Assembly (NCBI GenBank): GCA_902567945.1 | Contig: CACFOC010000001.1 | Location: forward strand, 20,343-84,342 | Direction: 5' to 3' | Length of the DNA stretch: 64,000 bases | Origin: an uncultured Pelagibacteraceae bacterium | GTDB taxonomy: Bacteria > Pseudomonadota > Alphaproteobacteria > Pelagibacterales > Pelagibacteraceae | In this document: positions 1,585-20,800 of the stretch, piece by piece | How positions within the stretch are numbered: the stretch's first letter is position 1 | Layout of the letters: every line of letters begins with the position of its first letter | Program-made: the position numbers and the translations under genes | Notes under the pieces: generated by a model | What the model saw: only the letters and a program-made list of their open reading frames with translations | Told to the model about the DNA's origin: nothing | The model's database searches: none

Positions 1585-2670
1585 ATGAAAAACGATAAAG
1601 AAATGTCTAAAGATAGAAAAAGAAGTTTAATCGAAAGATTAAACTCAGGACCTGTGATTTGCGCAGAAGGTTTTCTTTTTGAAATAGAAAAAAGAGGATA
1701 CATGGCATCTGGAGAATTTGTTCCTATGGTTTCATTAGAACATCCAGAAGCTTTAGAAAATCTTCATAGAGATTTTCAACATGCTGGTTCAGACATAGTA
1801 CAAGCATTTACCTATAATGGTCATCGTGAGAAAATGAAGGTTATTGGTAAAGAAGAACTATTAGAGCCACTTAACAGAGCTGCACTAAAAATAGCGAAAA
1901 AAGTTGCGACTAGTCCCATTGGAAAAGAACCCAACTTGATGGCTGGAAATATTTCAAACTCAAATATTTGGAATGACAAAGATCCAAAGACGCATTTGGA
2001 AGTTGAAAAAATGTTTTCAGAGATGGTTGGCTGGGCTGTTGATGAAGGTGCAGACATGCTAATCGGAGAAACTTTTTATTATGCTGCAGAGGCTTATACA
2101 GCTTTAAAAGTAATGAAAAAAACTGGACTTCCTTCAGTTATTACAATTGCTCCCATGGGAGAAAATATTATGAGAGATGGTATTTCCATTGTAAATACTT
2201 GCAAAGAACTAGAGCAACTTGGAGGAGAAGTAGTAGGCATGAATTGTTTTAGAGGACCAAACACAATGATGCCTTACATAAAAGAAGTTAGAAAAGTTCT
2301 AAAATGTCATGTTGCAGCTTTGCCTATTAACTTCAGGACAACTGAAAAACATCCTACTTTTTTTAATTTACCAGATAATAATGGATGTACTTGTAATACG
2401 CCACACAAGACTCCATTTCCCACGGCATTAGATCCAATGCAATGTAATAGATATGAAATTGGTAAATTTGCAAAAGAAGCTTTTAATCTTGGTGTAAATT
2501 ATTTAGGTGTATGTTGTGGGGCAAATCCTATGCTAATTAGAGAAGTAGCGGAGGCCGTTGGACTAAAAGTACCTGCTAGTAAATATAGAGAAGATATGTC
2601 TACTCATATGTTATTTGGAACACATAAAAGAATTCCAAAACATCAGAGAGATTATATGGATAAAGCTTAA
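1585..2670 (+). CDS. bhmt: Betaine-homocysteine S-methyltransferase (homocysteine S-methyltransferase/Pfam S-methyl_trans family)
   Basis: 361 aa. The N-terminal region ICAEGFLFEIEKRGY...EHPEALENLHRDFQHAGSDIVQAFTY closely resembles animal/bacterial BHMT. C-terminal Cys cluster GVCCGA is the Zn site. A strong SD lies upstream. Confidence 0.85.
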   Translation: MKNDKEMSKDRKRSLIERLNSGPVICAEGFLFEIEKRGYMASGEFVPMVSLEHPEALENLHRDFQHAGSDIVQAFTYNGHREKMKVIGKEELLEPLNRAALKIAKKVATSPIGKEPNLMAGNISNSNIWNDKDPKTHLEVEKMFSEMVGWAVDEGADMLIGETFYYAAEAYTALKVMKKTGLPSVITIAPMGENIMRDGISIVNTCKELEQLGGEVVGMNCFRGPNTMMPYIKEVRKVLKCHVAALPINFRTTEKHPTFFNLPDNNGCTCNTPHKTPFPTALDPMQCNRYEIGKFAKEAFNLGVNYLGVCCGANPMLIREVAEAVGLKVPASKYREDMSTHMLFGTHKRIPKHQRDYMDKA

Positions 2671-3221
2671 TTGGAATATGGAGATCGACTAAATATTTTT
2701 TTAACGTAAGGCTCAAAGTCTTTAAGCGTTAATGATTTAAAATTGGGATCAAATGATTTTTGGTCCCAATTTTCACAAAAGTTTATAGTATCTTGATAGT
2801 ATATATGGCCCTTGTATTTATCTCTTTGGTTTCTGTTTCCATTTAAATGGTGCGCATAATAATACATTTGAAATTCACCATGCTTTTCTATTATCCAATG
2901 AGTTTTTTCATTTACATAAGGTTTTAAAACTGCGGCGGCATACTCTGAATGATTTAATGGAGCTAATTCGTCACCAATATCATGGAATAATGCAGCAACT
3001 ATCATTTCATCATTAGCCTTGTCATTCAAGGCTCGCGTTGCTGTTTGCAACGAATGTTCTAATCTTGTTACTTGATACCCTTCTAAAGTATTATTTAATC
3101 CACTCATAAATTTGATTAGCCTATCAGCAGTGCCTTCTATATATTTTTTTTCATGCTTATCTAAGAGTAAGTACTCTTCTTTTGTACCATCTTTCATTTG
3201 TTTAAATTTTACTTTTTCCAT
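2667..3221 (-). CDS. HD-domain protein, PhnZ/TmpB-like putative mixed-valent diiron oxygenase
   Basis: 184 aa. It shows the FHDIGD HD motif plus extra conserved-looking His residues (LEHSLQ, LNHSEY, HWIIEKHGE) and a distal Asp (NWDQKSFD), an H..HD..H..H..D pattern. Its start overlaps the end of the upstream Fe/2OG oxygenase gene by 13 nt. Confidence 0.6.
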   Translation of the reverse strand: MEKVKFKQMKDGTKEEYLLLDKHEKKYIEGTADRLIKFMSGLNNTLEGYQVTRLEHSLQTATRALNDKANDEMIVAALFHDIGDELAPLNHSEYAAAVLKPYVNEKTHWIIEKHGEFQMYYYAHHLNGNRNQRDKYKGHIYYQDTINFCENWDQKSFDPNFKSLTLKDFEPYVKKIFSRSPYSN

Positions 3222-4315
3222 TTCAAATTAAACTTTCTTTCCAAAAATCTTAATCTTCCTTCTGTGGAATCGTGGTCAATATAACAGCCTTTTAAAAATC
3301 TTTTTCCTTCACTTTTACTAAAAGATGTTCTTCCATGTAATGTTCGATAATTATCAAACATTATTATGTCTCCAACTTCTAACTTAAATTTTAATTCAAA
3401 TTTTTTTGAAGCACATAATTTTGAAAATAATCTTCTTGCTTGATAGAATTTTTCTAATTGTTTTTTCTCAAGAATAGGCACATAATCTAACCTTGGGCTA
3501 TGTCTTATTTGTTTTGGTTTTCTATTATCATCTAACTCAATTATTTCACCCCAATTTTCAAGAATTATATCTTTATCAACAAATCTAAACCTTACCTTTG
3601 TAGATGAAAGTATATTAAATAAATCTTTATGTTTTTTTCTTAAATATTCAGCTACTGCAAATCCATCAACTACCGTTGAAAAGCCTCCTTTAACTTCATT
3701 GTAGATGCAATGTAACAACTGAATACAAGGGACAGGTTTCCTATAGGGATTATCAGTGTGAGCTGCAATATGATGATCAGTATAAGCAAGGTCATTATAA
3801 TTTTTTTCAGACCTAACATTAAAAGTAGTACCAAAATTAGTTGGACGAACTGTACCGATTGAATTTGCAAATTTTACAAGAAAATCTTCATCATCAGGTG
3901 TATTTTTTATAATAACAAAGCCATATTTATAAAAATTTTGTAATAGATCATACATATTAATTGTATCAAACATATGATCCCTAAAGTTTGTTTTGGGTAT
4001 ATTTTTTAGTTTTGAACTCCAAAATATAGGATTTTCATAAGGTAAATTTTTATTTAGCTCATAAAACAATTCTTTAATTTCATAATCAAATTTAATTCCG
4101 TCATTAAAATTTATATTTAAATGTCCGTTAGATATTGAGGCCTTTTTTATTTTTAAATTGGTGTTTAACTCAGAAGGGTCATACAATCTCTGGTCAGTAT
4201 TTTTATCATGCAAACTATTTAATCTGGCTCTTTCCCTAAGCCAAAGTGGATGTATTTCTAATTTTTTTTTGGGCAATTTTAAAAATACTTTATTTTTTGC
4301 AATTTCAATTCTCAC
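3209..4315 (-). CDS. Gamma-butyrobetaine hydroxylase-like Fe(II)/2-oxoglutarate dioxygenase (TauD/TfdA superfamily), TmpA-like
   Basis: 368 aa. The N-terminal domain is DUF971-like (IHPLWLRERA). The facial triad region reads AAHTDNPY...LLHC, with the distal motif NYRTLHGRTSF. Confidence 0.7.
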   Translation of the reverse strand: MRIEIAKNKVFLKLPKKKLEIHPLWLRERARLNSLHDKNTDQRLYDPSELNTNLKIKKASISNGHLNINFNDGIKFDYEIKELFYELNKNLPYENPIFWSSKLKNIPKTNFRDHMFDTINMYDLLQNFYKYGFVIIKNTPDDEDFLVKFANSIGTVRPTNFGTTFNVRSEKNYNDLAYTDHHIAAHTDNPYRKPVPCIQLLHCIYNEVKGGFSTVVDGFAVAEYLRKKHKDLFNILSSTKVRFRFVDKDIILENWGEIIELDDNRKPKQIRHSPRLDYVPILEKKQLEKFYQARRLFSKLCASKKFELKFKLEVGDIIMFDNYRTLHGRTSFSKSEGKRFLKGCYIDHDSTEGRLRFLERKFNLKWKK

Positions 4316-4393
4316 GTTATTATTTTATATTTTTTTATTGTTATCCTCAACAAGAAGATATACTCAAACTTTACTGATTTAATTAAATCAAAG

Positions 4394-5257
4394 ATGAAAA
4401 TACAAGATATATTTATTGCGTTATTGGTGCCTATAATTTTAGGTTTTGGCTTCGTAATTGCAAAACCTGCTATGCAATATTTTCCACCATATTTGTTAAT
4501 GGGAATGCGTTTTACTATACCAGCTTTATTACTTGTTTGGTGGTTTCCTATACCTAAAGGATTGTATTTGGATTTATTTAAGGTTTCATTTATAGGAAGC
4601 ACTTTACAATATGGATTAACGTACTCAGGGTTAAACATTATTGATGCATCTTCAGCTGTTCTTCTTGTACAACTCGAGGTTCCTTTTGGAATTATAATTG
4701 CATTCTTCTTATTAAAAGAAATTCCATCTATAAAAAATATAATCGGTTTAGTTATTGCTTTTATCGGAACATATATCCTTACAGGAGCTCCCAACCTTGA
4801 AGGCAAGTATGTTGGTGTTTTATTAGTTTTAGCTGGAGCTTTTACATGGTCGCTTGGAGCTGTTATGGCAAAATCTCTTAGTAAAAAAATAGATGCATTC
4901 GCATTAATGACTTGGCTTTGTGTATTTTCTGGACCAATGTTATTACTTGTATCATTAATTTTTGATGGGAATCCAGTTACTTATTTTTTATATGCAGACA
5001 CAAATAGTTGGTTAACAGTAATTTTTCTTGGGTTTTTTTTGCAACCAGTTGGTTATGGAGCATGGTACTATGTTTTAAAAAGGTACCAAGTCAATAAAGT
5101 TATGCCAGTATTGCTTATACTTCCAGTGACAGGTTTAATAACATCTATTTTTTTACTAGGAGAAGATCCTCCAAAGCAAGTTTTTCTTGGAGGTTTAATT
5201 ATAATTTTTGGAGTTGGTTTGATATTATTTACAAAAAAAAAATCAAAATATGAATAA
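4394..5257 (+). CDS. EamA/DMT-superfamily transporter
   Basis: 287 aa, about ten hydrophobic segments in a two-repeat EamA-like layout. The antisense ORF 4312-4806 is judged spurious. Confidence 0.75.
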
Positions 5258-7700
5258 GTCGTTACCCAAGAATGCAAAAGTAGTAATTATAGGTGGAGGA
5301 GTTGCCGGATGTTCTACAGCTTATCATCTCGGAAAATATGGTTGGAAAGATTTAGTTTTATTAGAAAGAGATCAATTAACATCAGGATCAACTTGGCATG
5401 CAGCTGGCTTAGTTAGTCAATTAGGACCATCCGCAGCAGTTACAAAAATTAGAAAATATTCTCTGGAACTTTATAAAAAATTAGAAAAGGAAGTTGATTT
5501 TTCAAGCGGACTTAAGTTGAATGGCGCTCTTTCAATCGCCACAACAAAAGGGAGATGGCAAGAATTATTAAGACAAGCAACAACTGCACAATTGTACGAT
5601 GTTAATGTAGAAGTTTTGAATATCGATCAGATCAAAAAAATTTATCCAGTAATTAATGAAAAAGGAGTATATGGAGGAATTTTTATGCCAGGAGATGGTC
5701 AAGCTGACCCTGTTGGCGTAACTAATTTGTTAGCGAAAGCAGCCAGAAATGAAGGTGTTAAAATATTTCAAAATTCACCTGTTCAAAAAATTCTTACAAA
5801 AAATGGAAGAGTTCATGGCGTAAAAGTTAAAGATCAAACAATCGAGTGTGAGTATGTAGTTTTAGCAACTGGGATGTGGTCAAGACAAATAGGAGAAGAT
5901 ATGGGCATTAATATTCCATTATATCCGGCGGAACATTTTTATGTAATTACCGAGCCAATAAATGATCTTCCTAAAGATATTCCTGTTCTCAGAGATTTTG
6001 ATGATAGTTTATACTTAAAAGAAGATGCTGGGAAAATGTTGATTGGAATTTTTGAAGGAAAATCAATTCCAGCATTTAACAAAACTAATAGAGTTCCAGA
6101 AGATTTTTCATTTGGTGAATTTCCTGAAAATTTTGAACATTTTGAGCCTTATTTAGAAGCATCTTTAAAAAGAGTGCCAATTTTAAAAAAAGCTGGGATA
6201 AGAAAATTTTTTGCAGGGCCAGAATCATTCACACCTGACACAAATACATTACTAGGAGAAGTTCCAGAAGTTAGAAATTTTTTTGTTTGCTGCGGATTTA
6301 ATAGTATTGGAATTGGTAGTGGAGGAGGAGCTGGGAAAGTAACAGCTGAATGGATAATGAATGGTCACATCAATGAAGATTTGTTTATATACGATATAAA
6401 AAGATTTCAAAAATTTCATTCAGAAATTAATTTTATTAAAGAAAGAATAACGGAAACTTTGGGAGATCTGTATGGAATGCACTGGCCATATAAACAACAT
6501 AAAACTTCAAGAAATAAAAAATTGTTTCCATATCACGAAGAATTAAAAAAAGCTGGCGCATGCTTTGGAGTATCATCAGGTTATGAAAGGCCATTATGGT
6601 TTGCTTTAAATAACGCGAAACCAGAAACTAAATATAGTTATAATTATCAAAATTGGTATCCGTCAGTAGAATTTGAAACAAAAAATGCAAGGAAGAATAT
6701 TGGTTTATTCGATTTAACAGCTTTTTCTAAGTATGATTTAAAAGGAGAAAAAACTCATAGCGAGTTGCAAAAAATTTGTACCGCAAATATTAAAAATGAA
6801 ATAGGAAAAACGACTTATACACAAATGTTAAATGAAGATGGTGGAATAGAAACAGATTTAACAGTTGTTTGTATAGATAAAAATTATTTTAGAATTGTTA
6901 CTTCCGCAGCAAACCGAGAGCACGATAAGTTTCATATTTTAAAGTATTTATCAAAAGAGATAGAATTTAAAGACGTCACCGAGGAGTTTGCTTGTCTCGG
7001 CGTGTTTGGCCCCAAAAGCAGAAGTTTGATGTCAAAATTATCAAATGATGATTTTTCTAATAAAAATTTTAAATTTGGGACGGGCAAAGAAATAAAAATA
7101 AATAACAATATAATTTGGGCACAAAGATTATCTTACGTTGGTGAACTTGGGTTTGAGCTTTATATAAAAATGAAAGAATCCACAGAAATACATAAATTGA
7201 TAGTCGACAAAGGTAAAGAACTTAATCTTTCACATTGCGGAATGTTTGCAATGGATACAATGAGAATGGAGAAGGGATACTTGCACTGGGGACACGACAT
7301 GTCGCCTGAAGAAAATCAATATGAAGCAGGATTAAAATTCGCAATAAGTTTTAAAAAAAATATTGATTTTGTTGGCAAGAAAGCAATTGAGAAAATACAA
7401 AATAAAAAAATTAAAAAGATGATGGTAATGCTTACTTTAAAAAATAATAAACCAGGGGCTCCATTGTTACTACATGATGAACCTATTTATTGTGATGGTA
7501 AAATAATTGGAAGAACCACTTCAGGAAACTATTCATTTAATTACGAAAAAAATATGTCACTAGGATATATTAATTTAAATTCTTCAATTAAAGATTTGAC
7601 AAAGAAAACTTTCTTTATTGAAGTTGAAAAAAAAAAATATGAAGCTATTTTGTTAACCAAGCCGCTTCATGATCCAGAAAATAAAATAATAAAAAGCTAA
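5250..7700 (+). CDS. Dimethylglycine/sarcosine dehydrogenase family flavoprotein (DAO domain plus GcvT-like THF-binding domain)
   Basis: 816 aa. The N-terminal FAD fold is [17 protein letters not shown]. The C-terminal aminomethyltransferase-like domain contains [10 protein letters not shown]. It overlaps the eamA end by 8 nt. Confidence 0.85.
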
Positions 7701-7712
7701 AAAGGAGGAAAT

Positions 7713-8654
7713 ATGAAAATTGGTTTTATAGGCTTAGGTAATGTAGGAGGTAAACTTGCTGGAAGTTTATTAAGAAATAAATTTGATTTAACTGTTATAG
7801 ATTTAAACGCTAGTTTAGTGAAAGATTTTGTTTCCAACGGATGTATATCAGCAAAATCACCAAAAGAATTAGCAGAAAAAGTCGATTTAATAATAACATG
7901 TCTCCCATCCCCTAAAATTTGTGCAGAGGTAATGGAAAAAAAAGATGGAGTTATTGAAGGACTTTCTAAAGAAAAAATTTGGTTAGAAATGAGTACAACA
8001 GACGATAAAGAAGTAAAGAGAATAGGTGAGTTAGTAAAATCAAAAGGAGCTATTCCATTAGATGCCCCTGTAAGTGGAGGCTGTCATCGCGCAGCAACTG
8101 GAAATATTGCCATATTTGTTGGAGGTGAAAGAAAATCTTTTGAAAAAATATTACCTGTATTAACTACAATGGGTCGGCAAATTTTACATACAGGTGAACT
8201 TGGGACAGCATCAATTTTAAAAGTTATTACAAATTATTTAGCATCGACCCATTTAGCAGCTTTAGGTGAAGCTTGGGCTGTAGCCAAAAAATCAAATTTA
8301 GATATAAAAAAAACATTTAAAGGCATTCAAGTTTCATCTGGAAATTCATTTGTTCATGAAACAGAAAGCCAAGTAATTTTAAATGGTTCCTACAATATAA
8401 ATTTTACTATGGATTTAGTGGAAAAGGATATGACTTTGTTTAATAATTTATCAAAAAAACTAAATATACCATTAGAAATTTCACCTTTAGTTTTAAGTAT
8501 TTTTAAAGATGCCCATAAAAAATATGGATCAAAAGCTTGGTCATCAATGGTAGTTAAAAGGCTAGAGGATATTTGCAAAATAAACTTTAGAGCTAGCGGA
8601 TTTCCTGATGAATTAGTTGATAATGAAAAAGAAGAAAAAGGTTATGAAATATAA
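7713..8654 (+). CDS. NAD(P)-dependent beta-hydroxyacid dehydrogenase (3-hydroxyisobutyrate dehydrogenase family)
   Basis: 313 aa. The Rossmann motif is MKIGFIGLGNVGGKLA. The SD upstream is strong (AAAGGAGGAAAT). Confidence 0.75.
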   Translation: MKIGFIGLGNVGGKLAGSLLRNKFDLTVIDLNASLVKDFVSNGCISAKSPKELAEKVDLIITCLPSPKICAEVMEKKDGVIEGLSKEKIWLEMSTTDDKEVKRIGELVKSKGAIPLDAPVSGGCHRAATGNIAIFVGGERKSFEKILPVLTTMGRQILHTGELGTASILKVITNYLASTHLAALGEAWAVAKKSNLDIKKTFKGIQVSSGNSFVHETESQVILNGSYNINFTMDLVEKDMTLFNNLSKKLNIPLEISPLVLSIFKDAHKKYGSKAWSSMVVKRLEDICKINFRASGFPDELVDNEKEEKGYEI

Positions 8655-8678
8655 TTTATGTGATAATAGTAATTCAAA

Positions 8679-10109
8679 ATGTTAGACAAAAGAAATTTTT
8701 ACATAAATGGAAAATGGGTAAAACCTTCAAAATCAAATGACTTTGAAGTTATAAACCCATCCAACGAAGAATCGTTTGCTGTTATATCTCTAGGATTTAA
8801 AGAAGACACAGACTCGGCAGTAAAAGCGGCAAAAAAAGCCTTCGATAAATGGAAAGAAACTTCAAAAGAAGAAAGATTAAAACTTTTGGAAAAATTACTG
8901 AAAGTTTATAAAAAAAGATCTAAAGAAATGTCCGAGGCAATTTCAATGGAAATGGGTTCCCCCATAGATTATTCATCCTCTACGCATACTACTTCTGGGC
9001 AATCTCATTTAGAAGATTTCATATTAAGATTAAAAGAATTTAATTTTGAAAAACATTTTGATTCAAAATCAAACAATCATATAAGTTATGAACCAATCGG
9101 AGTTTGTGGTTTAATTACTCCATGGAATTGGCCAATTAACCAAATAGCTTTAAAAGTAGCCCCAGCTTTTGCTGCAGGCTGCACAATGATACTTAAACCA
9201 TCAGAGATAGCACCCATCTCTGGAATGTTGTTTGCTGAAATGATAGATGAAGCAGGATTTCCACCAGGAGTATTTAATTTAGTTAATGGTGATGGAGCAG
9301 GAGTTGGTACAAATATATCCGGTCATCCCGATATCGATATGATCTCTTTTACAGGATCAACAAGAGCAGGAAAATTAATTTCAAAAAATGCAGCTGATAC
9401 AATTAAAAGAGTTTGTTTAGAACTAGGAGGCAAAGGTGGAAATATTGTTTTTGCAGATTCTTATCCTCAAGCAGTTAGAGATGGGATTAGAAATGTAATG
9501 AGTAATTCTGGACAATCATGTGACGCCCCAACAAGAATGCTTGTAGAAAAATCCATTTATGAGAGAGCAATTAAAGAAGCGGCAGATGAAGCAAATAAAA
9601 TTAAAGTAGATTTTGCATCAAAAAAAGGAGATCATATAGGTCCTGTAGTTTCAAAAGCTCAATATGATAAAATTATTAACTTAATTAAAAGCGGAATTGA
9701 TGAGGGCGCTACATTGGCCACTGGAGGACCCGAACTTCCAAATAATTTGAATAAAGGTTATTTTATTAAACCAACAATTTTCACAAATGTTACAAACAAT
9801 ATGCAAATAGCAAAAAAAGAAATTTTTGGACCAGTCCTTTCAATAATTTCATTTGAAACAGAAGAAGAAGCAATTAAAATTACTAACGATACAGAATATG
9901 GCCTTGGAAACTATTTACAAACCGAAGATAAAGAAAAAGCAAAAAGAGTTGCAAAAAAGTTAAGATCTGGAATTGTTTATATTAATGGAAAAGCAGCAGA
10001 TTCCGGAACGCCTTTCGGCGGATATAGACAATCTGGAAATGGGCGTGAAGGTGGTACGTGGGGACTAGAAGAATACTTAGAGGTAAAAACAATTACTGGA
10101 TGGGAATAA
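8679..10109 (+). CDS. NAD(P)+ aldehyde dehydrogenase (betaine-aldehyde-dehydrogenase-like)
   Basis: 476 aa. ALDH hallmarks are present: ITPWNWP, FTGSTRAGK, ELGGKG, and catalytic Cys in GQSCDAPTR. Confidence 0.85.
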   Translation: MLDKRNFYINGKWVKPSKSNDFEVINPSNEESFAVISLGFKEDTDSAVKAAKKAFDKWKETSKEERLKLLEKLLKVYKKRSKEMSEAISMEMGSPIDYSSSTHTTSGQSHLEDFILRLKEFNFEKHFDSKSNNHISYEPIGVCGLITPWNWPINQIALKVAPAFAAGCTMILKPSEIAPISGMLFAEMIDEAGFPPGVFNLVNGDGAGVGTNISGHPDIDMISFTGSTRAGKLISKNAADTIKRVCLELGGKGGNIVFADSYPQAVRDGIRNVMSNSGQSCDAPTRMLVEKSIYERAIKEAADEANKIKVDFASKKGDHIGPVVSKAQYDKIINLIKSGIDEGATLATGGPELPNNLNKGYFIKPTIFTNVTNNMQIAKKEIFGPVLSIISFETEEEAIKITNDTEYGLGNYLQTEDKEKAKRVAKKLRSGIVYINGKAADSGTPFGGYRQSGNGREGGTWGLEEYLEVKTITGWE

Positions 10110-10110
10110 A

Positions 10111-10908
10111 ATGAAGAAAAAAGATAAACTAAATTATTATAAATTTTTAAATTCACTACCTAAAAAAATTAATAAATTATATTTTGGGAAATTAATAGGT
10201 AAATTTAAATTAAATAATAAATCAAGTAAAAAAAATGGTTTTGATCCCGTAACCAATATTGATAGAGCTTTAGAATTATTTTTAAGGAAGGAAATAACAA
10301 AAAGATTTCCAAATGACGGTATAATTGGAGAAGAATTTAAAGCAAAAAAAACAAAGAGTGGGTTTTCATGGATTCTTGATCCAATAGATGGAACTAGATC
10401 ATTTATTATAGGAAGTCCAACTTGGAGCAATTTAATAAGTATAAATTATAATAACGAACCAACCTTAGGCTTGGTTAATTTTCCCATGTTGAATAAATAT
10501 TATATTACTGGTTCAAATAATAATTCTTATTTAGTAAAAAATAATAAATTTAAAAAACTTAAAGTAATAAAATCAAATTCACTAAATACTTCAAAAATTG
10601 CTGGAAATTTTTTTGGTTGGCTCACTCTTAATGAACAAAAAAAAATTTCAAAATTAACGAGACTGATAAGATTCCCTTGTTCTGATGCCTTAAGTTATTG
10701 TCAATTGTGTGAAGGAAAACTGAATGTAGTCCTACAATGTTACAACAAAATTTGGGATATACACCCATTGATACCTTTAATTAAAAATGCGGGTGGTTAT
10801 ATAAATACTTGGAATGGAAAAGATCCCAAGATTGCTGGAAGCATAGTTGCATCTTCAAGCTCAATATTACATAAAAAAATTCTTAAAATGTTAAAGCCGG
10901 TGGCCTGA
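10111..10908 (+). CDS. Inositol monophosphatase-family phosphatase (HisN-like)
   Basis: 265 aa. Motifs present are WILDPIDGTRSFI and WDIHPLIPLIKNAGG. It starts 1 nt after the ALDH stop. Confidence 0.7.
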   Translation: MKKKDKLNYYKFLNSLPKKINKLYFGKLIGKFKLNNKSSKKNGFDPVTNIDRALELFLRKEITKRFPNDGIIGEEFKAKKTKSGFSWILDPIDGTRSFIIGSPTWSNLISINYNNEPTLGLVNFPMLNKYYITGSNNNSYLVKNNKFKKLKVIKSNSLNTSKIAGNFFGWLTLNEQKKISKLTRLIRFPCSDALSYCQLCEGKLNVVLQCYNKIWDIHPLIPLIKNAGGYINTWNGKDPKIAGSIVASSSSILHKKILKMLKPVA

Positions 10909-10918
10909 TTTAAATTAG

Positions 10919-12052
10919 TTAAACATTTTTTTTTAAAAAATTTAGTCTTCCTATAATTTCATCTCTATCCATGTAATATCCTTGTAAATGCCTTTGTCCT
11001 GAATTTGGGTTAAAAGCTGTTCTTCCATGCAAAAGTCTTCTATTATTAAATGAAAAGATGTCTCCGGGCTCTAATCGAAATTTAATTTGAAATTTATCAT
11101 CATGTAGAAGATTTCCAAATCGATGATGAGCTTTATAAACATTATCCATAATATCAGGATGGCAATCTAATGCATCCATAGTAGCAACGCTAAATCTTAT
11201 ATCATGGTAATCGCCATCTTTAGTTAAACTAATTGCTGTAGCGTGAAAACTTCTATGAGATTCTTGTGTATAATCTTTATCTCTAAATTTAAGAGGTGTA
11301 CTAACTAAAGTTTCAAAAATTTCTTTTTCATTTTTTCTTAAATAGTCAGCTACCGCAAAACCATCCACTGCAGAAGAATCTCCTCCTTCTGCATCATTAA
11401 TCAGACAATGAAGAAATTGATATCCTGGCGGATTTTCAAACCAAGGTAAATCCATATGATTTCTTAAATCATGAGCTGTATATGCTGAATTATTTGGTTT
11501 TGGAACATTTATAACTTCAAAGGGTGTTTTAAAAAAAGTTTCTCTTGTATGACTAATTCTATTTAGTACTGGAAATGCAGTTTCTTTTTCAGTGGGAGCA
11601 TTTTTTACTAATGCAATTCCTTTATGATGTAATAGTTCTAGCCATTTAATTAATCCTTCATCAGAATTAATAATTTCATCATGTTCTATACTTATTGATT
11701 GTAAATTATTTACAAGCGAGCTACCCCACAATTGATAAGGAGATACATATTTTTCTTTATTTTTTAATGTATAACAATTTTCTCTTAACCAACTTGGATC
11801 AAAATAACTTGTGTGATCACCTTCACTCCATTCTATTTCAAGTTTTCCATCAGAATTAACATTATATTTTTTTGGTTTTATGTTTTTTGAAACTTTAAGA
11901 ATATTAAACATTCTATGCCTTGAATCTTTGTCATGAGCTGATGGACAGTTGTCTCTTAACCACATGAAATTAAAATTACTTTTTTTGCCATCACTCCATA
12001 CGACATCTAATCCCGAACCATTTTGTGATATTTTTGAAATAGTTATTGTCAT
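10919..12052 (-). CDS. Second gamma-butyrobetaine hydroxylase-like Fe(II)/2OG dioxygenase
   Basis: 377 aa. The N-terminus is DUF971-like (FMWLRDNCPS, PSWLRENC). The core reads LRNHMDLPWFENPPGYQFLHC...VDGFAVADYL...NNRRLLHGRTAF. Confidence 0.75.
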   Translation of the reverse strand: MTITISKISQNGSGLDVVWSDGKKSNFNFMWLRDNCPSAHDKDSRHRMFNILKVSKNIKPKKYNVNSDGKLEIEWSEGDHTSYFDPSWLRENCYTLKNKEKYVSPYQLWGSSLVNNLQSISIEHDEIINSDEGLIKWLELLHHKGIALVKNAPTEKETAFPVLNRISHTRETFFKTPFEVINVPKPNNSAYTAHDLRNHMDLPWFENPPGYQFLHCLINDAEGGDSSAVDGFAVADYLRKNEKEIFETLVSTPLKFRDKDYTQESHRSFHATAISLTKDGDYHDIRFSVATMDALDCHPDIMDNVYKAHHRFGNLLHDDKFQIKFRLEPGDIFSFNNRRLLHGRTAFNPNSGQRHLQGYYMDRDEIIGRLNFLKKNV

Positions 12053-17326: not shown

Positions 17327-19744
17327 CTAACTTCTCATTTTTCCACCATTTGCATCGTACAAAGGTTTGTTTGTTACTCGAGCAGCATATAATTTTCCAT
17401 TAATTTCTACCTCTAATGCTGTGTCGTGCTTAGATAATTCTGTAGGTACGTAGCCGAGAGCCATACTTTTTCTTACATGATGAGCATAACCCCCTGAAGT
17501 TATATAACCAACGCATTTATTATCTTTTAAAATTGCTTCATCATTTGTTACATCAATATCTTTAGTATCAATACTCATAGTAACAAGCTTCTTTTTTGGA
17601 CCTATCTTTTTTTCATTTTGCGCTAATTTTTTACCAATAAATTCTTTATCCCAATTGATAAAAACATCTAATCCAGATTCAGCGGCAGTGAAATCAGGTC
17701 TAAAGTCAAGTGTCCAGGCTCCCCAATTTTTTTCTAACCTTAAAGACATTAAAGCTCTAGCCCCATAAAGTTTTAAGGATAATTCTTTTCCATGAGCTTC
17801 AATTTCTTCAAATAGTTTTAACTGAAATTGTGGGGCAACATAAATTTCATACCCTAGTTCTCCAGAAAACGAAATACGATTTAATATTGCGGGAACCCCT
17901 CCAACAAAAGTTTCTTTAGTATCTCTAAATTTAAACATTTTCTCAGAAACGTCATCTCTACAAATTTTAGATAATAATTTTCTTGAATTTGGCCCTGAAA
18001 TAGCGATACCATGAAAATCATCTGATCTGTTTTTGTAATTTACTTCATTATTTGGCAAGAATTTTTCAAACCATCTTCTATGCATTTCTTGAGCAGCCCC
18101 AGATCCAAAAATCATAAATTTTTCTTCATTTAAGCAAGCAACAGTTAAATCACCATATAATTTTCCCCTGGGAGTCAGCATCGGTGTTAGAATAATTCTA
18201 CCCGGCTTAGGTATTCTGCCAGCTAAAATATAATCAAGAAATTTTCTTGCTCCTTTTCCTGTAAATTCATGTTTTGCAAAATTGGCTATTTCTATTGCTC
18301 CAACTGAGTTTCTTACCGCTTTTACCTCCTCGGCTATATAACTGTGACTTCTAGAACGTTTAAAGGTAGGTTCTTCATGAGCGTCTTTTGGATTTTTTGC
18401 AAACCATAGAGCATTTTCTAAACCAAAAGAATCACCCATTACAGCTCCTCTTTCTACTAAACGATCATATAAAGATGTTGTTTTTTGTTTTCTTCCTTTT
18501 GGTAAAGTTTCATTTGGGAAAGTCATTATAAATCTTCTTTCATAATTTTCAGAAGATTTTACTGTTCCATAATCTGGTGACGCATAATTTCCAAAACGTG
18601 CTACATCCATTGCCCAAACATCTATTGAGGGTTCACCATCAATTATCCATTCTGCTATACATTTACCAACACCTCCACCTTGACAAAAACCAGCCATGAC
18701 ACCAACTGCAACCCAGTAATTTTTCATTCCTGGAACCGGGCCAATTAAAGGACTTCCATCTGGACCAAAGGTAAATGGTCCATTAACAATATTTTTTATT
18801 CCTGCCTTTTCTAACGCTGGTATTCTTTTGAATCCTATTGCTAATCTATCCTGAATATTTTCTAATTTAGGTTCTAAAAGTTCATGCCCAAAGTTCATAG
18901 GGGTTCCTTTTACTTTCCAAGGAGTAGATTTTTGTTCATAAGTTCCGAGCAACATTCCATTTGCTTCTTGTCTAAAATAAATGTTTCCTTCAAAATCAGT
19001 TCCTATAGGTAGTCTTTTATCTTTTCCCATTGCTTCAATTTCTGGTATAGCTTCAGTAATTAAATAATGATGTTCCATTGGTTGCACTGGTAAATTTATT
19101 CCAGCTAATTTACCCACTTCTCTTGCCCAAAGCCCGCCAGCATTAATAACTATTTCTGCATTCACATTTCCCTTATCTGTAATTACATCCCATGAACCAT
19201 CATTTTTTTGTTTAGTATCGGTTACAACTGTGTTGGTAAAATATTTACCACCATAAACTTTAGCTGCTTTTGCAAAAGCATATGTTACACCAGATGGATC
19301 AACCTCCCCATCAATAGGGTCCCATAAAGCTAAAAGATATTTTTTAGGATCTATTAAAGGATGTTTTTTTTTAACTTCTTCTAATGAAATAAATTCTTGA
19401 TCTAAGCCCATATATCTAGCCTTTGATCTTTCTCTTTTTAAGTAATCTGCCCAAACTTCATTAGAAGCTAAATAAAATCCTCCGCTTGGTTTAAAACCAG
19501 TCGAATGCCCAGATTCTTTTTCAATTTCTTTATAAAGGCCTATTGTATAGGCCATCATTCTTGAGATGTTTGGGTCAGAAGAAATTACATGTACATTTCC
19601 CGCTGCATGCCAAGATGACCCAGAAGTTAATTCATTTCTTTCAATTAATATGCAATCTTTTAGTCCAAACTTAGATAAATGATATAGTATTGAGCAACCG
19701 ACCACTCCTCCACCTATAACAACTACCTTGGCGTGTTTTTCCAT
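17327..19744 (-). CDS. Second dimethylglycine/sarcosine dehydrogenase family flavoprotein
   Basis: 805 aa. It has VVVIGGGVVGCSILYHL and a C-terminal GcvT-like domain (FSGELGYEIYV). It lies directly downstream of the second bhmt-like gene. Confidence 0.85.
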   Translation of the reverse strand: MEKHAKVVVIGGGVVGCSILYHLSKFGLKDCILIERNELTSGSSWHAAGNVHVISSDPNISRMMAYTIGLYKEIEKESGHSTGFKPSGGFYLASNEVWADYLKRERSKARYMGLDQEFISLEEVKKKHPLIDPKKYLLALWDPIDGEVDPSGVTYAFAKAAKVYGGKYFTNTVVTDTKQKNDGSWDVITDKGNVNAEIVINAGGLWAREVGKLAGINLPVQPMEHHYLITEAIPEIEAMGKDKRLPIGTDFEGNIYFRQEANGMLLGTYEQKSTPWKVKGTPMNFGHELLEPKLENIQDRLAIGFKRIPALEKAGIKNIVNGPFTFGPDGSPLIGPVPGMKNYWVAVGVMAGFCQGGGVGKCIAEWIIDGEPSIDVWAMDVARFGNYASPDYGTVKSSENYERRFIMTFPNETLPKGRKQKTTSLYDRLVERGAVMGDSFGLENALWFAKNPKDAHEEPTFKRSRSHSYIAEEVKAVRNSVGAIEIANFAKHEFTGKGARKFLDYILAGRIPKPGRIILTPMLTPRGKLYGDLTVACLNEEKFMIFGSGAAQEMHRRWFEKFLPNNEVNYKNRSDDFHGIAISGPNSRKLLSKICRDDVSEKMFKFRDTKETFVGGVPAILNRISFSGELGYEIYVAPQFQLKLFEEIEAHGKELSLKLYGARALMSLRLEKNWGAWTLDFRPDFTAAESGLDVFINWDKEFIGKKLAQNEKKIGPKKKLVTMSIDTKDIDVTNDEAILKDNKCVGYITSGGYAHHVRKSMALGYVPTELSKHDTALEVEINGKLYAARVTNKPLYDANGGKMRS

Positions 19745-19753
19745 TAATATAAA

Positions 19754-20800
19754 TTATAATGTTTTTGCTGCGTCGGTGTTATGTTTTTTTAAGGTTTTAT
19801 CTGTACCATGAGCATAATGCTTAGACATATCAGGATAATATTTATACGAAATAGGTTTTTTCCCCAAAGCAACTGCCATTTCACGTACGTGATGAGGTTC
19901 TGCACCACAGCAAATTCCAATAAAATTTATTTCTTTTTCCGAACATTCTTTTGCAAATTCAGCCATTTCAAATCTATTACAGTACAAATTATCTAATGCG
20001 ACCGGAAAAGCATTTCCACCCGGTATGCAATCACACCCTTCATCAGTTTGATTTAAAAATCCAGGATTTTTTTCAGTAGTTCTATACGGGACTGGTAAAG
20101 CCGCAACATGGCATGAAACACTTTTTCTGATTTCAGGTAAAAGTTTCATGGTCATTTTTGGTCCTCTAAAGCAATTTAATCCAACAACATCCGCACCATT
20201 ATCTTCTAAAATTTTACACGCTTCACCTGGTGAAATACCTTCTCTAGTTTTACCATCTCTTCTAAATGCATAATTACAAACTGCAATTAATCCAGCATCT
20301 TTTATAGCTTTAAGTGCTATTTTTAGTTCTTCGACCCAAGTGATTGTCTCAGCAATTATAAAATCAACTCCTGCTTCTTTTGCCCAAGTTATTTGTTCTT
20401 CAAACATTTTTTGACATTGAACATTACTTTTTTTATCATTGGGATCATAAACGTTTGTATTTGCAACATTTCCAGCTACCATTAAATTTAAATTTTTAAA
20501 TTCGTTTCTTGCATCTTTTGCAATTTTTAGAGCATTTTTTTGAAGTGGTTCTAGAAGTTTTTCTTTTCCAATTATTCTTAACTTTTCTCTATGTCCATAA
20601 TAAGTAAATGCTTGAACAACATCGCTTCCAGCTCTTATAAATTCTCTATGTAACTGAGAAACTACTTCTGGATGCTCTAAAACTACTTCAGGAACAAAAG
20701 CACCAGCTTGCAAATATCCTCTTCTTTCCATTGCAAAAAGATATCCTTCAGCACAGAGTATAGGACCTTTATTAAGTCTATCAATTAAATTTTCGCTCAT
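19754..20800 (-). CDS. Second betaine-homocysteine S-methyltransferase-like protein
   Basis: 348 aa. It reads LCAEGYLFAMERRGY...EHPEVVSQLHREFIRAGSDVVQAFTY with GICCGA. I see no structured leader upstream. Confidence 0.8.
   Translation of the reverse strand: MSENLIDRLNKGPILCAEGYLFAMERRGYLQAGAFVPEVVLEHPEVVSQLHREFIRAGSDVVQAFTYYGHREKLRIIGKEKLLEPLQKNALKIAKDARNEFKNLNLMVAGNVANTNVYDPNDKKSNVQCQKMFEEQITWAKEAGVDFIIAETITWVEELKIALKAIKDAGLIAVCNYAFRRDGKTREGISPGEACKILEDNGADVVGLNCFRGPKMTMKLLPEIRKSVSCHVAALPVPYRTTEKNPGFLNQTDEGCDCIPGGNAFPVALDNLYCNRFEMAEFAKECSEKEINFIGICCGAEPHHVREMAVALGKKPISYKYYPDMSKHYAHGTDKTLKKHNTDAAKTL

Follow-up and report, generated by a model that had tools for sequence, protein, structure and literature searches.

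A putative hydroxylase and HD-domain oxygenase pair in a Pelagibacteraceae genome, probably of a lineage separate from TmpA/TmpB

Which reaction is catalysed by the products of two overlapping genes, one encoding an Fe(II)/2-oxoglutarate (2OG) dioxygenase of the BBOX/TmpA family and the other an HD-domain protein, in the genome of an uncultured Pelagibacteraceae (SAR11) bacterium? The genes lie in a 64,000-nucleotide stretch of contig CACFOC010000001.1, called the window below. A first-pass annotation had read them as a TmpA/TmpB pair acting on 2-(trimethylammonio)ethylphosphonate (TMAEP). Rajakovich et al. reportedly established that chemistry in 2019 for TmpA and TmpB of Leisingera caerulea (PDB 6npb and 6npa), with TMAEP being converted to (R)-1-hydroxy-TMAEP and then to glycine betaine and phosphate. 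Both open reading frames (ORFs), encoding 368 and 184 residues, were found where the annotation had placed them, overlapping by 13 nt (Table 1). Our analysis of their sequences indicates that the pair is probably a hydroxylase coupled to a diiron oxygenase, acting on a quaternary-ammonium compound with glycine betaine as the probable product, and that it forms a lineage separate from TmpA/TmpB; conversion of TMAEP to betaine and phosphate is one possible option among several.

The HD protein retains the metal ligands of the PhnZ/TmpB-type oxygenases. In an alignment of 37 diverse relatives, residues H56, H80, D81, H91, H114 and D153 were invariant or nearly so, and a profile alignment placed them onto H34, H58, D59, H80, H104 and D161 of PhnZ as well as onto the ligands of TmpB, so that the oxygenase-type His/Asp pattern first noticed in the sequence holds at all six PhnZ ligand positions. 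A profile built from the same alignment matched only PhnZ (E = 1.7e-13) and TmpB (E = 2.1e-13) in the PDB. When the AlphaFold2 model of the protein (mean pLDDT 97) was compared with the PDB using Foldseek, the ten best matches were all PhnZ or TmpB chains, with TM-scores of 0.61–0.70, and the next match had an E-value of 0.19; MIOX and HD hydrolases appeared only in the non-significant range (E 0.19 or higher). Because the six ligands align to those of PhnZ, and because profile and fold matches are confined to PhnZ and TmpB, we predict that this PhnZ/TmpB-like six-ligand protein is a diiron oxygenase and not a hydrolase. A four-ligand phosphohydrolase was considered and rejected, since six ligands are conserved and no hydrolase is found among the significant sequence or fold matches. 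The protein belongs to a large Pelagibacteraceae family, with homologues in more than 7000 clusters at 90% identity, some of which carry the Joint Genome Institute (JGI) label 'predicted HD phosphohydrolase'.

The HD protein is set apart from TmpB and PhnZ by its remaining active-site residues. It scored 30.9 bits against the NCBIfam model for TmpB (NF049941; cut-off 300), in a match limited to residues 47–84, 36.2 bits against Phn-HD (cut-off 214.6) and 34.5 bits against PhnZ1 (cut-off 300), all of these matches being confined to the surroundings of the first His and the HD dyad. For comparison, we assembled a control set of 80 metagenomic loci encoding proteins 64–92% identical to L. caerulea TmpA; 54 of these have a downstream TmpB and served as the TmpB orthologue set. 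A control pair from one such locus (L086) scored 597.1 bits for TmpA and 362.1 bits for TmpB, both over the equivalog cut-offs. Across the orthologue set, the Tyr and Glu of the YxxE lid, the fifth His (HDxGH), the Lys of HVAAKRY and the third Arg are each present in 54/54 sequences, and the Arg of HVAAKRY in 53/54; PhnZ shares these residues at every position covered by its aligned fragment, which leaves out only the third Arg.

Counted over 69 genome loci, the family of the window protein differs at each of these positions. The lid Tyr (TmpB Y30, PhnZ Y24) is replaced by L46, a Leu in 62 of the 68 family loci counted at this position, and the lid Glu (TmpB E33, PhnZ E27) by Y49, a Tyr in 69/69. 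D84 stands in place of the fifth His (PhnZ H62; Asp in 69/69) and Q118 in place of the HVAAKRY Lys (K108; Gln in 69/69), followed by M119 for the Arg (R109), at a position that varies in the family. E150 stands for the third Arg (R158), which lies three residues ahead of the last Asp ligand; Glu occupies this position in 66/69 loci. As the roles of PhnZ H62, K108 and R158 are presumed here, their invariance in TmpB orthologues was measured instead. The YxxE lid loop has been described previously, and PhnZ E27 contacts the substrate's amino group (PMC8177086). The family has invariant residues of its own (Y49, R53, R63, D84, P88, Q118, W109, F117, Y121, F148, F157 and D158) and nearly invariant ones (N90 and E150), and by the profile alignment it is without the 11-residue insert that follows the HD dyad in TmpB. 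The HD protein therefore was rejected as a TmpB orthologue on account of its score (30.9 bits against a cut-off of 300) and the replacement of the lid, fifth His, HVAAKRY Lys/Arg and third Arg; by alignment, it keeps the diiron ligands yet lacks every specificity residue common to PhnZ and TmpB.

Of the characterised enzymes, TmpA gives the dioxygenase its best scores, ahead of BBOX, in both NCBIfam and the PDB. The protein scored 329.1 bits on the TmpA model (NF049936; cut-off 400) and 267.9 bits on the BBOX model (TIGR02409; cut-off 414.75), and in the PDB it matched TmpA (6npb) at 4e-46 and human BBOX (hBBOX) at 7e-41. The other dioxygenases of its clade scored 316–339 bits on the TmpA model, above their own BBOX scores. 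Alignment to TmpA and hBBOX showed that the iron triad (H186/D188/H327) and the aromatic cage for the trimethylammonium group (F161/F165/Y178) are kept, and R339, in a GKRFLKG segment aligned to the 'SRWL/SRHL' of TmpA/hBBOX, was assigned as the 2OG-binding Arg. The Pfam domain GBBH-like_N was not detected in this protein; it was detected in a paralogue encoded elsewhere in the window.

TmpA binds its phosphonate via N187, N287 and R288, and human BBOX binds its ligand via N191 and N293, with Ala at the position of TmpA R288 (PMC9296572). The clade of the window dioxygenase carries a signature at these sites, namely D175 at the position of TmpA N187 and hBBOX N191, and S273-P274-R275-L276-D277 in place of the TmpA segment FNNRS. 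N187, present in 78/78 TmpA orthologues, is Asp in 13/13 clade members (D175 in the window), and N286, likewise present in 78/78, is Ser in 13/13 (S273). N287 (77/78) is Pro, Asn or Thr in the clade and P274 in the window, whereas R288 (78/78) remains Arg in 13/13 (R275). Two of the three phosphonate-binding residues of TmpA are thus changed in the window protein and R288 is retained, with one residue after R288 deleted relative to TmpA. The replacements recur in each dioxygenase found paired with an HD gene of this family in SAR11, Alteromonas, Marinomonas and Halomonas.

In a neighbour-joining tree, calculated without bootstraps, the clade and four fusion proteins of likely eukaryotic origin were separate from the TmpA clade and also apart from human BBOX and the window's second BBOX-like gene; the dioxygenase did not cluster with bona fide gamma-butyrobetaine hydroxylases. 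Mean identities of the clade were 30.5% to TmpA, 30.2% to hBBOX and 29.3% to the SAR11 BBOX-like paralogue. A true gamma-butyrobetaine hydroxylase was rejected on the basis of the BBOX score (267.9 bits against 414.75), the change of N191 to Asp and of the NN motif to S-P, and the separate position in the tree. Orthology to TmpA was also rejected, given the score below the cut-off, the separate clade, the replacement of N187 and N286 and the variability of N287. The paralogue, a second BBOX-family dioxygenase of 377 residues, has a GBBH-like N-terminal domain and an Asn at the position of hBBOX N191, and reaches 331 bits against the BBOX model (cut-off 414.75). Beside carnitine dehydrogenase (CDH)-like and BKACE-like genes, as named from their sequences, there are copies 60% identical to it in three loci of a second SAR11 lineage (L049, L051 and L054).

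Several lines of evidence indicate that the dioxygenase and the HD protein are genuinely partners. A search for the HD family in one genome per species returned 80 loci, and in several groups a clade dioxygenase gene directly precedes the HD gene in the same orientation, abutting or overlapping it. This order was found in the window's own lineage (L002–L004), in the second SAR11 lineage (L049, L051, L053 and L054), in two Alteromonas species, in Marinomonas communis and Halomonas smyrnensis, and in one Steroidobacteraceae metagenome-assembled genome (MAG). According to the ORF coordinates, the genes overlap by a few to about 13 nt in L003, L004, L050 and L068 and abut elsewhere. Moreover, of the 10 long relatives of the HD protein that we checked, 8 combine a TauD domain at the N-terminus and an HD domain at the C-terminus in one chain, and two of these clusters were traced to protist transcriptomes (Dracoamoeba and Eutreptiella). 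The Asp and the S-x-RLD signature are found together in four fusions (P0152, P0171, P0192 and P0210), and a fifth (P0187) has just the Asp; in the tree, P0152, P0171, P0187 and P0210 fall with the bacterial dioxygenase clade. TmpA-type dioxygenases occur with TmpB-type HD proteins in 54 loci, and Asp/RLD-type dioxygenases with the window type of HD protein in 13 loci and in the fusions, showing that the active-site substitutions co-vary across both partners in the sequences compared. The partnership is supported by the recurrence of the gene order across lineages, the single-polypeptide fusions and these co-occurring signature changes. Because the NCBIfam scores fall below the cut-offs that the controls pass, because the tree clade is separate and because the substitutions co-vary, we regard the pair as a distinct lineage. 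Further relatives of the HD protein (P0180/P0276 and P0173) join the HD family to different domains, a fatty-acid-hydroxylase domain in one fusion, whose cluster contains the prasinophyte Mantoniella antarctica, and an NAD-dependent epimerase/dehydratase domain in another, which hints at different upstream partners.

The conserved residues of both proteins suggest a reaction in two steps. In the first, the Fe(II)/2OG enzyme would hold a trimethylammonium, or possibly a dimethylsulfonium, head group in its aromatic cage, as its family and conserved residues suggest, and would hydroxylate the carbon two bonds from the onium nitrogen, the same carbon that bears the acidic group, as BBOX and TmpA do. 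In the second, the HD protein would use a diiron cofactor and O2 for a four-electron oxidation, to which its ligand set, its fold and the gene fusions point, breaking the bond between the new carbinol carbon and the acidic substituent and leaving glycine betaine. The betaine may then be demethylated by the products of the adjacent bhmt and dimethylglycine-dehydrogenase-type genes, as the gene context suggests.

A quaternary-ammonium substrate is favoured because the aromatic cage is kept, because the Marinomonas operon (LysR, dioxygenase, HD, BCCT) extends to the gene of a BCCT transporter whose nearest matches are betaine importers (501 bits), and because LysR regulators flank the pair, with GbdR-like regulators in Alteromonas (names read from representative sequences). 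In about ten loci, including L030-32, L037-38, L063 and L067, the HD gene sits among genes whose sequences suggest the breakdown of carnitine or gamma-butyrobetaine (CDH-like, BKACE-like, acyl-CoA dehydrogenase, enoyl-CoA hydratase and thioesterase), and some of these loci have no dioxygenase. When 136 neighbour proteins were compared with Pfam, none of the 25 commonest families listed was phosphorus-related. The use of genomic context as an argument against TMAEP was rejected, since genuine tmpAB loci are likewise two-gene units with a divergent LysR gene and without a phosphonate transporter, one having a downstream MttB-family gene. The context therefore points to a quaternary-ammonium compound, with no power to separate TMAEP from other betaines.

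We consider some TMAEP-like phosphonate, with C–P cleavage and phosphate release, to be the single most likely type of substrate, if by no means an assured one. A carboxylate or hydroxy-acid betaine, with C–C cleavage, appears almost as likely, because both active sites have lost cationic or amide residues that TmpA/TmpB use for phosphonate. Other outcomes share the remaining probability.

If TMAEP itself were the substrate, the pair would be a divergent but isofunctional TmpA/TmpB, hydroxylating TMAEP at C1 and cleaving the C–P bond to give glycine betaine and phosphate, which we regard as doubtful. TmpA is the best-scoring characterised model for every clade dioxygenase (316–339 bits), the phosphonate-binding R288 is kept in 13/13 members, and all characterised close relatives of the HD protein cleave C–P bonds; R53 and R63, invariant in the HD family, could take over phosphonate binding, and the missing phosphorus-related context is not contrary evidence, as genuine tmpAB loci also have only a divergent LysR gene and no phosphonate transporter. 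Set against this are the changes of N187 to Asp and N286 to Ser throughout the clade and the variability of N287, an Asp beside a dianionic phosphonate probably being unfavourable. The lid YxxE, fifth His, HVAAKRY Lys/Arg and third Arg of TmpB have likewise become Leu/Tyr, Asp, Gln/Met and Glu, and the scores on the TmpA and TmpB models (329 against 400 and 31 against 300 bits) contrast with those of the controls (597 and 362).

Alternatively, the same two steps may act on a betaine that is not a phosphonate (beta-alanine betaine, dimethylsulfoniopropionate (DMSP) or a carnitine-type hydroxy acid), with an alpha-hydroxy acid or vicinal diol as the intermediate, and with CO2 or a C2 acid released alongside glycine betaine (or dimethylsulfonioacetate) by C–C cleavage; we advance this tentatively. 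C–C cleavage has a precedent among HD oxygenases in MIOX, which cleaves a vicinal diol. SmaX, moreover, converts an alpha-hydroxycarboxylate made by its partner Fe/2OG hydroxylase (PMC12186529). The loss of cationic or amide residues and the gain of acidic ones, with Asp for N187, and Gln, Met, Glu and Asp for K108, R109, R158 and H62, would fit a substrate with one less negative charge, for instance a carboxylate, in a heuristic argument made without coordinates. A betaine of this kind would also suit the presence of the HD family in carnitine/gamma-butyrobetaine-type gene sets, some without a dioxygenase, and the betaine-importer-like BCCT transporter of Marinomonas, and the widespread stand-alone SAR11 HD gene is easier to explain if a naturally hydroxylated, carnitine-like compound is also a substrate. 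On the other hand, no diiron PhnZ-type enzyme is known to cut a C–C bond in an acyclic acid, SmaX being mononuclear, and the TmpA-specific Arg, which is still present, points to a strongly anionic group.

Among known systems, the predicted module most resembles TmpA/TmpB in mechanism. Both have the same gene order and tight coupling, with a divergent LysR gene in several relatives of the window pair; the dioxygenase shares with TmpA the TauD fold, iron triad, aromatic cage, 'TN[YF]G' motif and R288, and the HD protein shares with TmpB its fold and all six diiron ligands. Genes for glycine betaine demethylation also lie near both, bhmt and a dimethylglycine-dehydrogenase-type gene here and an MttB-family gene at one tmpAB locus. 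The differences lie in sequence, with identities of about 30% between the dioxygenase and TmpA and, in structural alignment, of about 20–22% between the HD protein and TmpB, and in the frequent occurrence of the window-type HD gene without a dioxygenase. The first-pass annotation was thus right in recognising a coupled Fe/2OG–HD pair with six ligands, nearest to TmpA, PhnZ and TmpB; the proteins are not orthologues, having failed the equivalog cut-offs. Its identification of the two as a TmpA/TmpB pair acting on TMAEP is not supported, as the substrate-site residues are replaced in both and the HD gene usually lacks an adjacent dioxygenase.

PhnY and PhnZ convert 2-aminoethylphosphonate (2-AEP) to glycine and phosphate, and the PhnY*/PhnZ1 variant acts on methylphosphonate. 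In both sequence and fold, the HD protein is matched best by PhnZ (profile E-value 1.7e-13; TM-score up to 0.70). The partner in the window differs in being of the TauD/BBOX type, and PhnZ E27 is replaced by Tyr; the PhyH family, the partner type of the HD family in Rhodobacteraceae, is what we take to be the family of PhnY. BBOX (human 3ms5/4bg1; TIGR02409) has the superfamily and the aromatic cage in common with the dioxygenase, which differs in its Asp at the carboxylate-binding N191 and its S-P in place of the NN motif. SmaO and SmaX convert Asp to beta-hydroxy-Asp and then to aminomalonate in a ribosomally synthesised and post-translationally modified peptide (RiPP), in a cascade that cuts a C–C bond in an alpha-hydroxycarboxylate (PMC12186529). 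They too combine an Fe/2OG hydroxylase with a subsequent HD-domain oxygenase; SmaX, however, has a peptide as its substrate and a single iron held by two His and an Asn, whereas the window HD protein retains all the diiron ligands. In the fungus Fonsecaea multimorphosa, PhoF is a fused PhnY–PhnZ (PMC10574752). Like the fusions described above, it joins a hydroxylase and an HD oxygenase in one eukaryotic protein. The N-terminal half of PhoF is said, in its original description, to resemble PhnY, and the window-related fusions differ by that description in having a TauD/BBOX-type half with the Asp/RLD signature. With a hydroxylase partner adjacent or fused and a diiron ligand set on a PhnZ-like fold, the HD protein has the features of an HD-domain diiron oxygenase; by the defining tests applied to the sequences, the pair fails as TmpA, TmpB, PhnZ or BBOX and passes only as such an oxygenase with a partner hydroxylase. 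Literature searches returned no published description of either clade or of the pair.

Several points weigh against reading the pair as a betaine-forming hydroxylase–oxygenase module. Six His/Asp ligands occur in dinuclear HD hydrolases too (PMC8177086), so the oxygenase chemistry is a prediction. Glycine betaine is assumed as the product by analogy and context only. In about 38 of the 52 loci titled Pelagibacteraceae or Pelagibacter, the HD gene has no dioxygenase within 6 kb; there, the partner gene must lie at another site, unless the HD enzyme can act on a compound that is already hydroxylated. Nor does the first step appear to be fixed, given that in seven Rhodobacteraceae and related loci (L059, L064, L072-L075 and L081) the HD family is preceded by an abutting or overlapping gene for a 290-residue PhyH-family dioxygenase. 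The closest solved structure to this PhyH-type partner is 6zyk (3e-28), deposited as 'monooxygenase / uncharacterized protein', for which a literature search gave no identification.

The stand-alone HD gene has a setting that consists of rplI, dnaB, an MMPL-type transporter gene, cvpA, purF, the HD gene, which begins 3 nt after purF, a DUF255-like gene in some loci, gshA, gshB, and EamA and MFS genes (neighbour names read from representative sequences). In other SAR11 genomes (loci L005–L048), a DUF255-like gene follows the stand-alone HD gene. The window likewise begins inside a DUF255-like gene, named from its sequence only, which is 59% identical to the copy at the stand-alone locus. Because of this match, the window HD gene is placed by gene order at the same chromosomal position as the stand-alone copy, and it looks as though the dioxygenase gene, methylamine genes and bhmt were added around a conserved SAR11 HD gene.

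This setting bears on whether the adjacency of the two genes is merely incidental in SAR11. The HD protein would then have a housekeeping role, perhaps as a metal-dependent phosphohydrolase, and its gene would only by chance adjoin an inserted island for methylamine catabolism, which we consider very unlikely; equally improbable in our view is the accompanying proposal that the dioxygenase acts alone, for example as a gamma-butyrobetaine-type hydroxylase or as an oxidative ester-cleaving enzyme that feeds the nearby aldehyde dehydrogenase. The shared chromosomal place, marked by the DUF255-like gene, speaks for an incidental association, as do the location of the HD gene 3 nt after purF and before gshA/gshB in most SAR11 genomes sampled and the aldehyde dehydrogenase that accompanies the dioxygenase in three lineages. 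It is opposed by the dioxygenase–HD order, which has arisen or persisted independently in several Gammaproteobacteria and the second SAR11 lineage and is fixed as a fusion in eukaryote-derived sequences, by the recurrence of the gene overlap (a few to about 13 nt) and by the lack of hydrolases among the significant sequence and fold matches.

The features of the locus are listed in Table 1. Both genes are real and not chance ORFs, judging from the more than 7000 HD homologues and from the recurrence of the dioxygenase–HD–bhmt arrangement in three other Pelagibacteraceae genomes (L002–L004), one of which, a single-cell genome (L002), holds a 92%-identical syntenic locus. The HD start codon, read directly from the sequence, is located within the last codons of the dioxygenase gene, and the overlap is consistent with translational coupling.

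Table 1 Features of the dioxygenase–HD locus and related genes in the window
Feature	Position	Strand	Details
DUF255-like gene (cluster c17)	1-1338	minus	at window start
SAM-II-like riboswitch candidate upstream of bhmt	1398-1472	plus	Rfam SAM_alpha 29.8 bits (gathering score 36)
SAM-V riboswitch candidate upstream of bhmt	1513-1577	plus	Rfam SAM_V 40.8 bits (gathering score 41)
bhmt-like gene (homocysteine S-methyltransferase type)	1585-2670	plus	Pfam S-methyl_trans 4.5e-35; convergent with HD gene, 4-nt overlap
HD-domain protein, predicted diiron oxygenase, PhnZ/TmpB-like lineage	2667-3221	minus	184 aa, ATG start; Pfam HD 2.3e-05
Dioxygenase stop/HD start overlap	3209-3221	minus	13 nt, ATGGAAAAAGTAA
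Fe(II)/2OG dioxygenase (BBOX/TmpA family, clade c11)	3209-4315	minus	368 aa, GTG start; Pfam TauD 1.2e-40
ORF antisense to EamA gene	4312-4806	minus	164 aa, TTG start; most likely no gene
Intergenic region between dioxygenase–HD unit and divergent EamA/dehydrogenase unit	4316-4393		78 bp, AT-rich
EamA transporter	4394-5257	plus	Pfam EamA 1.7e-37; divergent from dioxygenase
Dimethylglycine/sarcosine-dehydrogenase-type gene	5250-7700	plus	Pfam DAO 4.8e-69 and GCV_T 1.7e-72; divergent from dioxygenase
3-Hydroxyisobutyrate-dehydrogenase-type, aldehyde dehydrogenase and inositol-monophosphatase-family genes	7713-10908	plus	after dehydrogenase
Second BBOX-family dioxygenase	10919-12052	minus	377 aa
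Second DAO+GCV_T dehydrogenase	17327-19744	minus	beside second homocysteine S-methyltransferase-type gene
Second homocysteine S-methyltransferase-type gene	19754-20800	minus

Around the pair, the convergent bhmt and the divergent EamA and DAO+GCV_T genes are all in place as previously annotated, bearing out a glycine-betaine-catabolic neighbourhood through the bhmt-like and dimethylglycine-dehydrogenase-type genes. SAR11 Bhmt has been proposed to couple glycine betaine demethylation with methionine synthesis (PMC12478193). As for the control of bhmt by a riboswitch, also claimed earlier, a lenient search yielded SAM-II-like and SAM-V matches in tandem upstream of the gene, both just under the Rfam gathering scores, and a scan of the window at the gathering threshold gave no match. 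The short AT-rich region between the two divergent units presumably contains the promoters of both. In the whole window, which has a G+C content of about 30%, there are two bhmt-like and two dimethylglycine/sarcosine-dehydrogenase-like genes. The G+C content and the syntenic locus of L002 both assign the window to SAR11.

The genes that follow the first dehydrogenase resemble part of an Arctic SAR11 genomic island (PMC12421898). An aldehyde dehydrogenase about 53% identical to the window's lies upstream of the dioxygenase–HD pair in the second SAR11 lineage, and a copy from the same cluster is also present in the Steroidobacteraceae MAG. Compared with L003 and L004, the window dioxygenase is 64–65% identical and the flanking HD, EamA and bhmt proteins are 83–86% identical, so that by this comparison the dioxygenase is diverging faster than its neighbours.

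The substrate of the HD family also bears on estimates of phosphonate use in the ocean. In a 2022 survey, Pelagibacterales accounted for 45% of marine phnZ sequences, and phnZ was called the dominant route of phosphonate remineralisation (PMC9381506), whereas a 2021 study that treated the subclades of phnZ separately recorded low abundance and very few sites for the 2-AEP-specific form (PMC8316502). A review notes this discrepancy, with a 2-AEP-specific estimate of less than 0.01% of surface bacteria (PMC10574752). The SAR11 HD family plausibly makes up much of the phnZ counted by at least one ocean survey and may explain much of this discrepancy. On its substrate would then depend whether phosphonate use underlies a large part of the marine phnZ signal reported. 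The question is directly testable, as the pair is present in the culturable hosts Marinomonas communis DSM 5604 and Halomonas smyrnensis AAD6.

The pair would be a third lineage of hydroxylase and HD-oxygenase cascades, in which new chemistry is possible. We put forward, as a conjecture with less than an even chance, that the SAR11 HD family is not a phosphonate enzyme and that, together with the Asp/RLD dioxygenase, it turns a non-phosphonate onium compound into glycine betaine or dimethylsulfonioacetate by C–C cleavage. If so, it would be the first C–C-cleaving member of the PhnZ-type diiron branch, survey estimates of phnZ as the dominant marine phosphonate-catabolism gene would be inflated, and bhmt would be supplied with methyl groups by an additional, new route in the most abundant heterotroph of the ocean.

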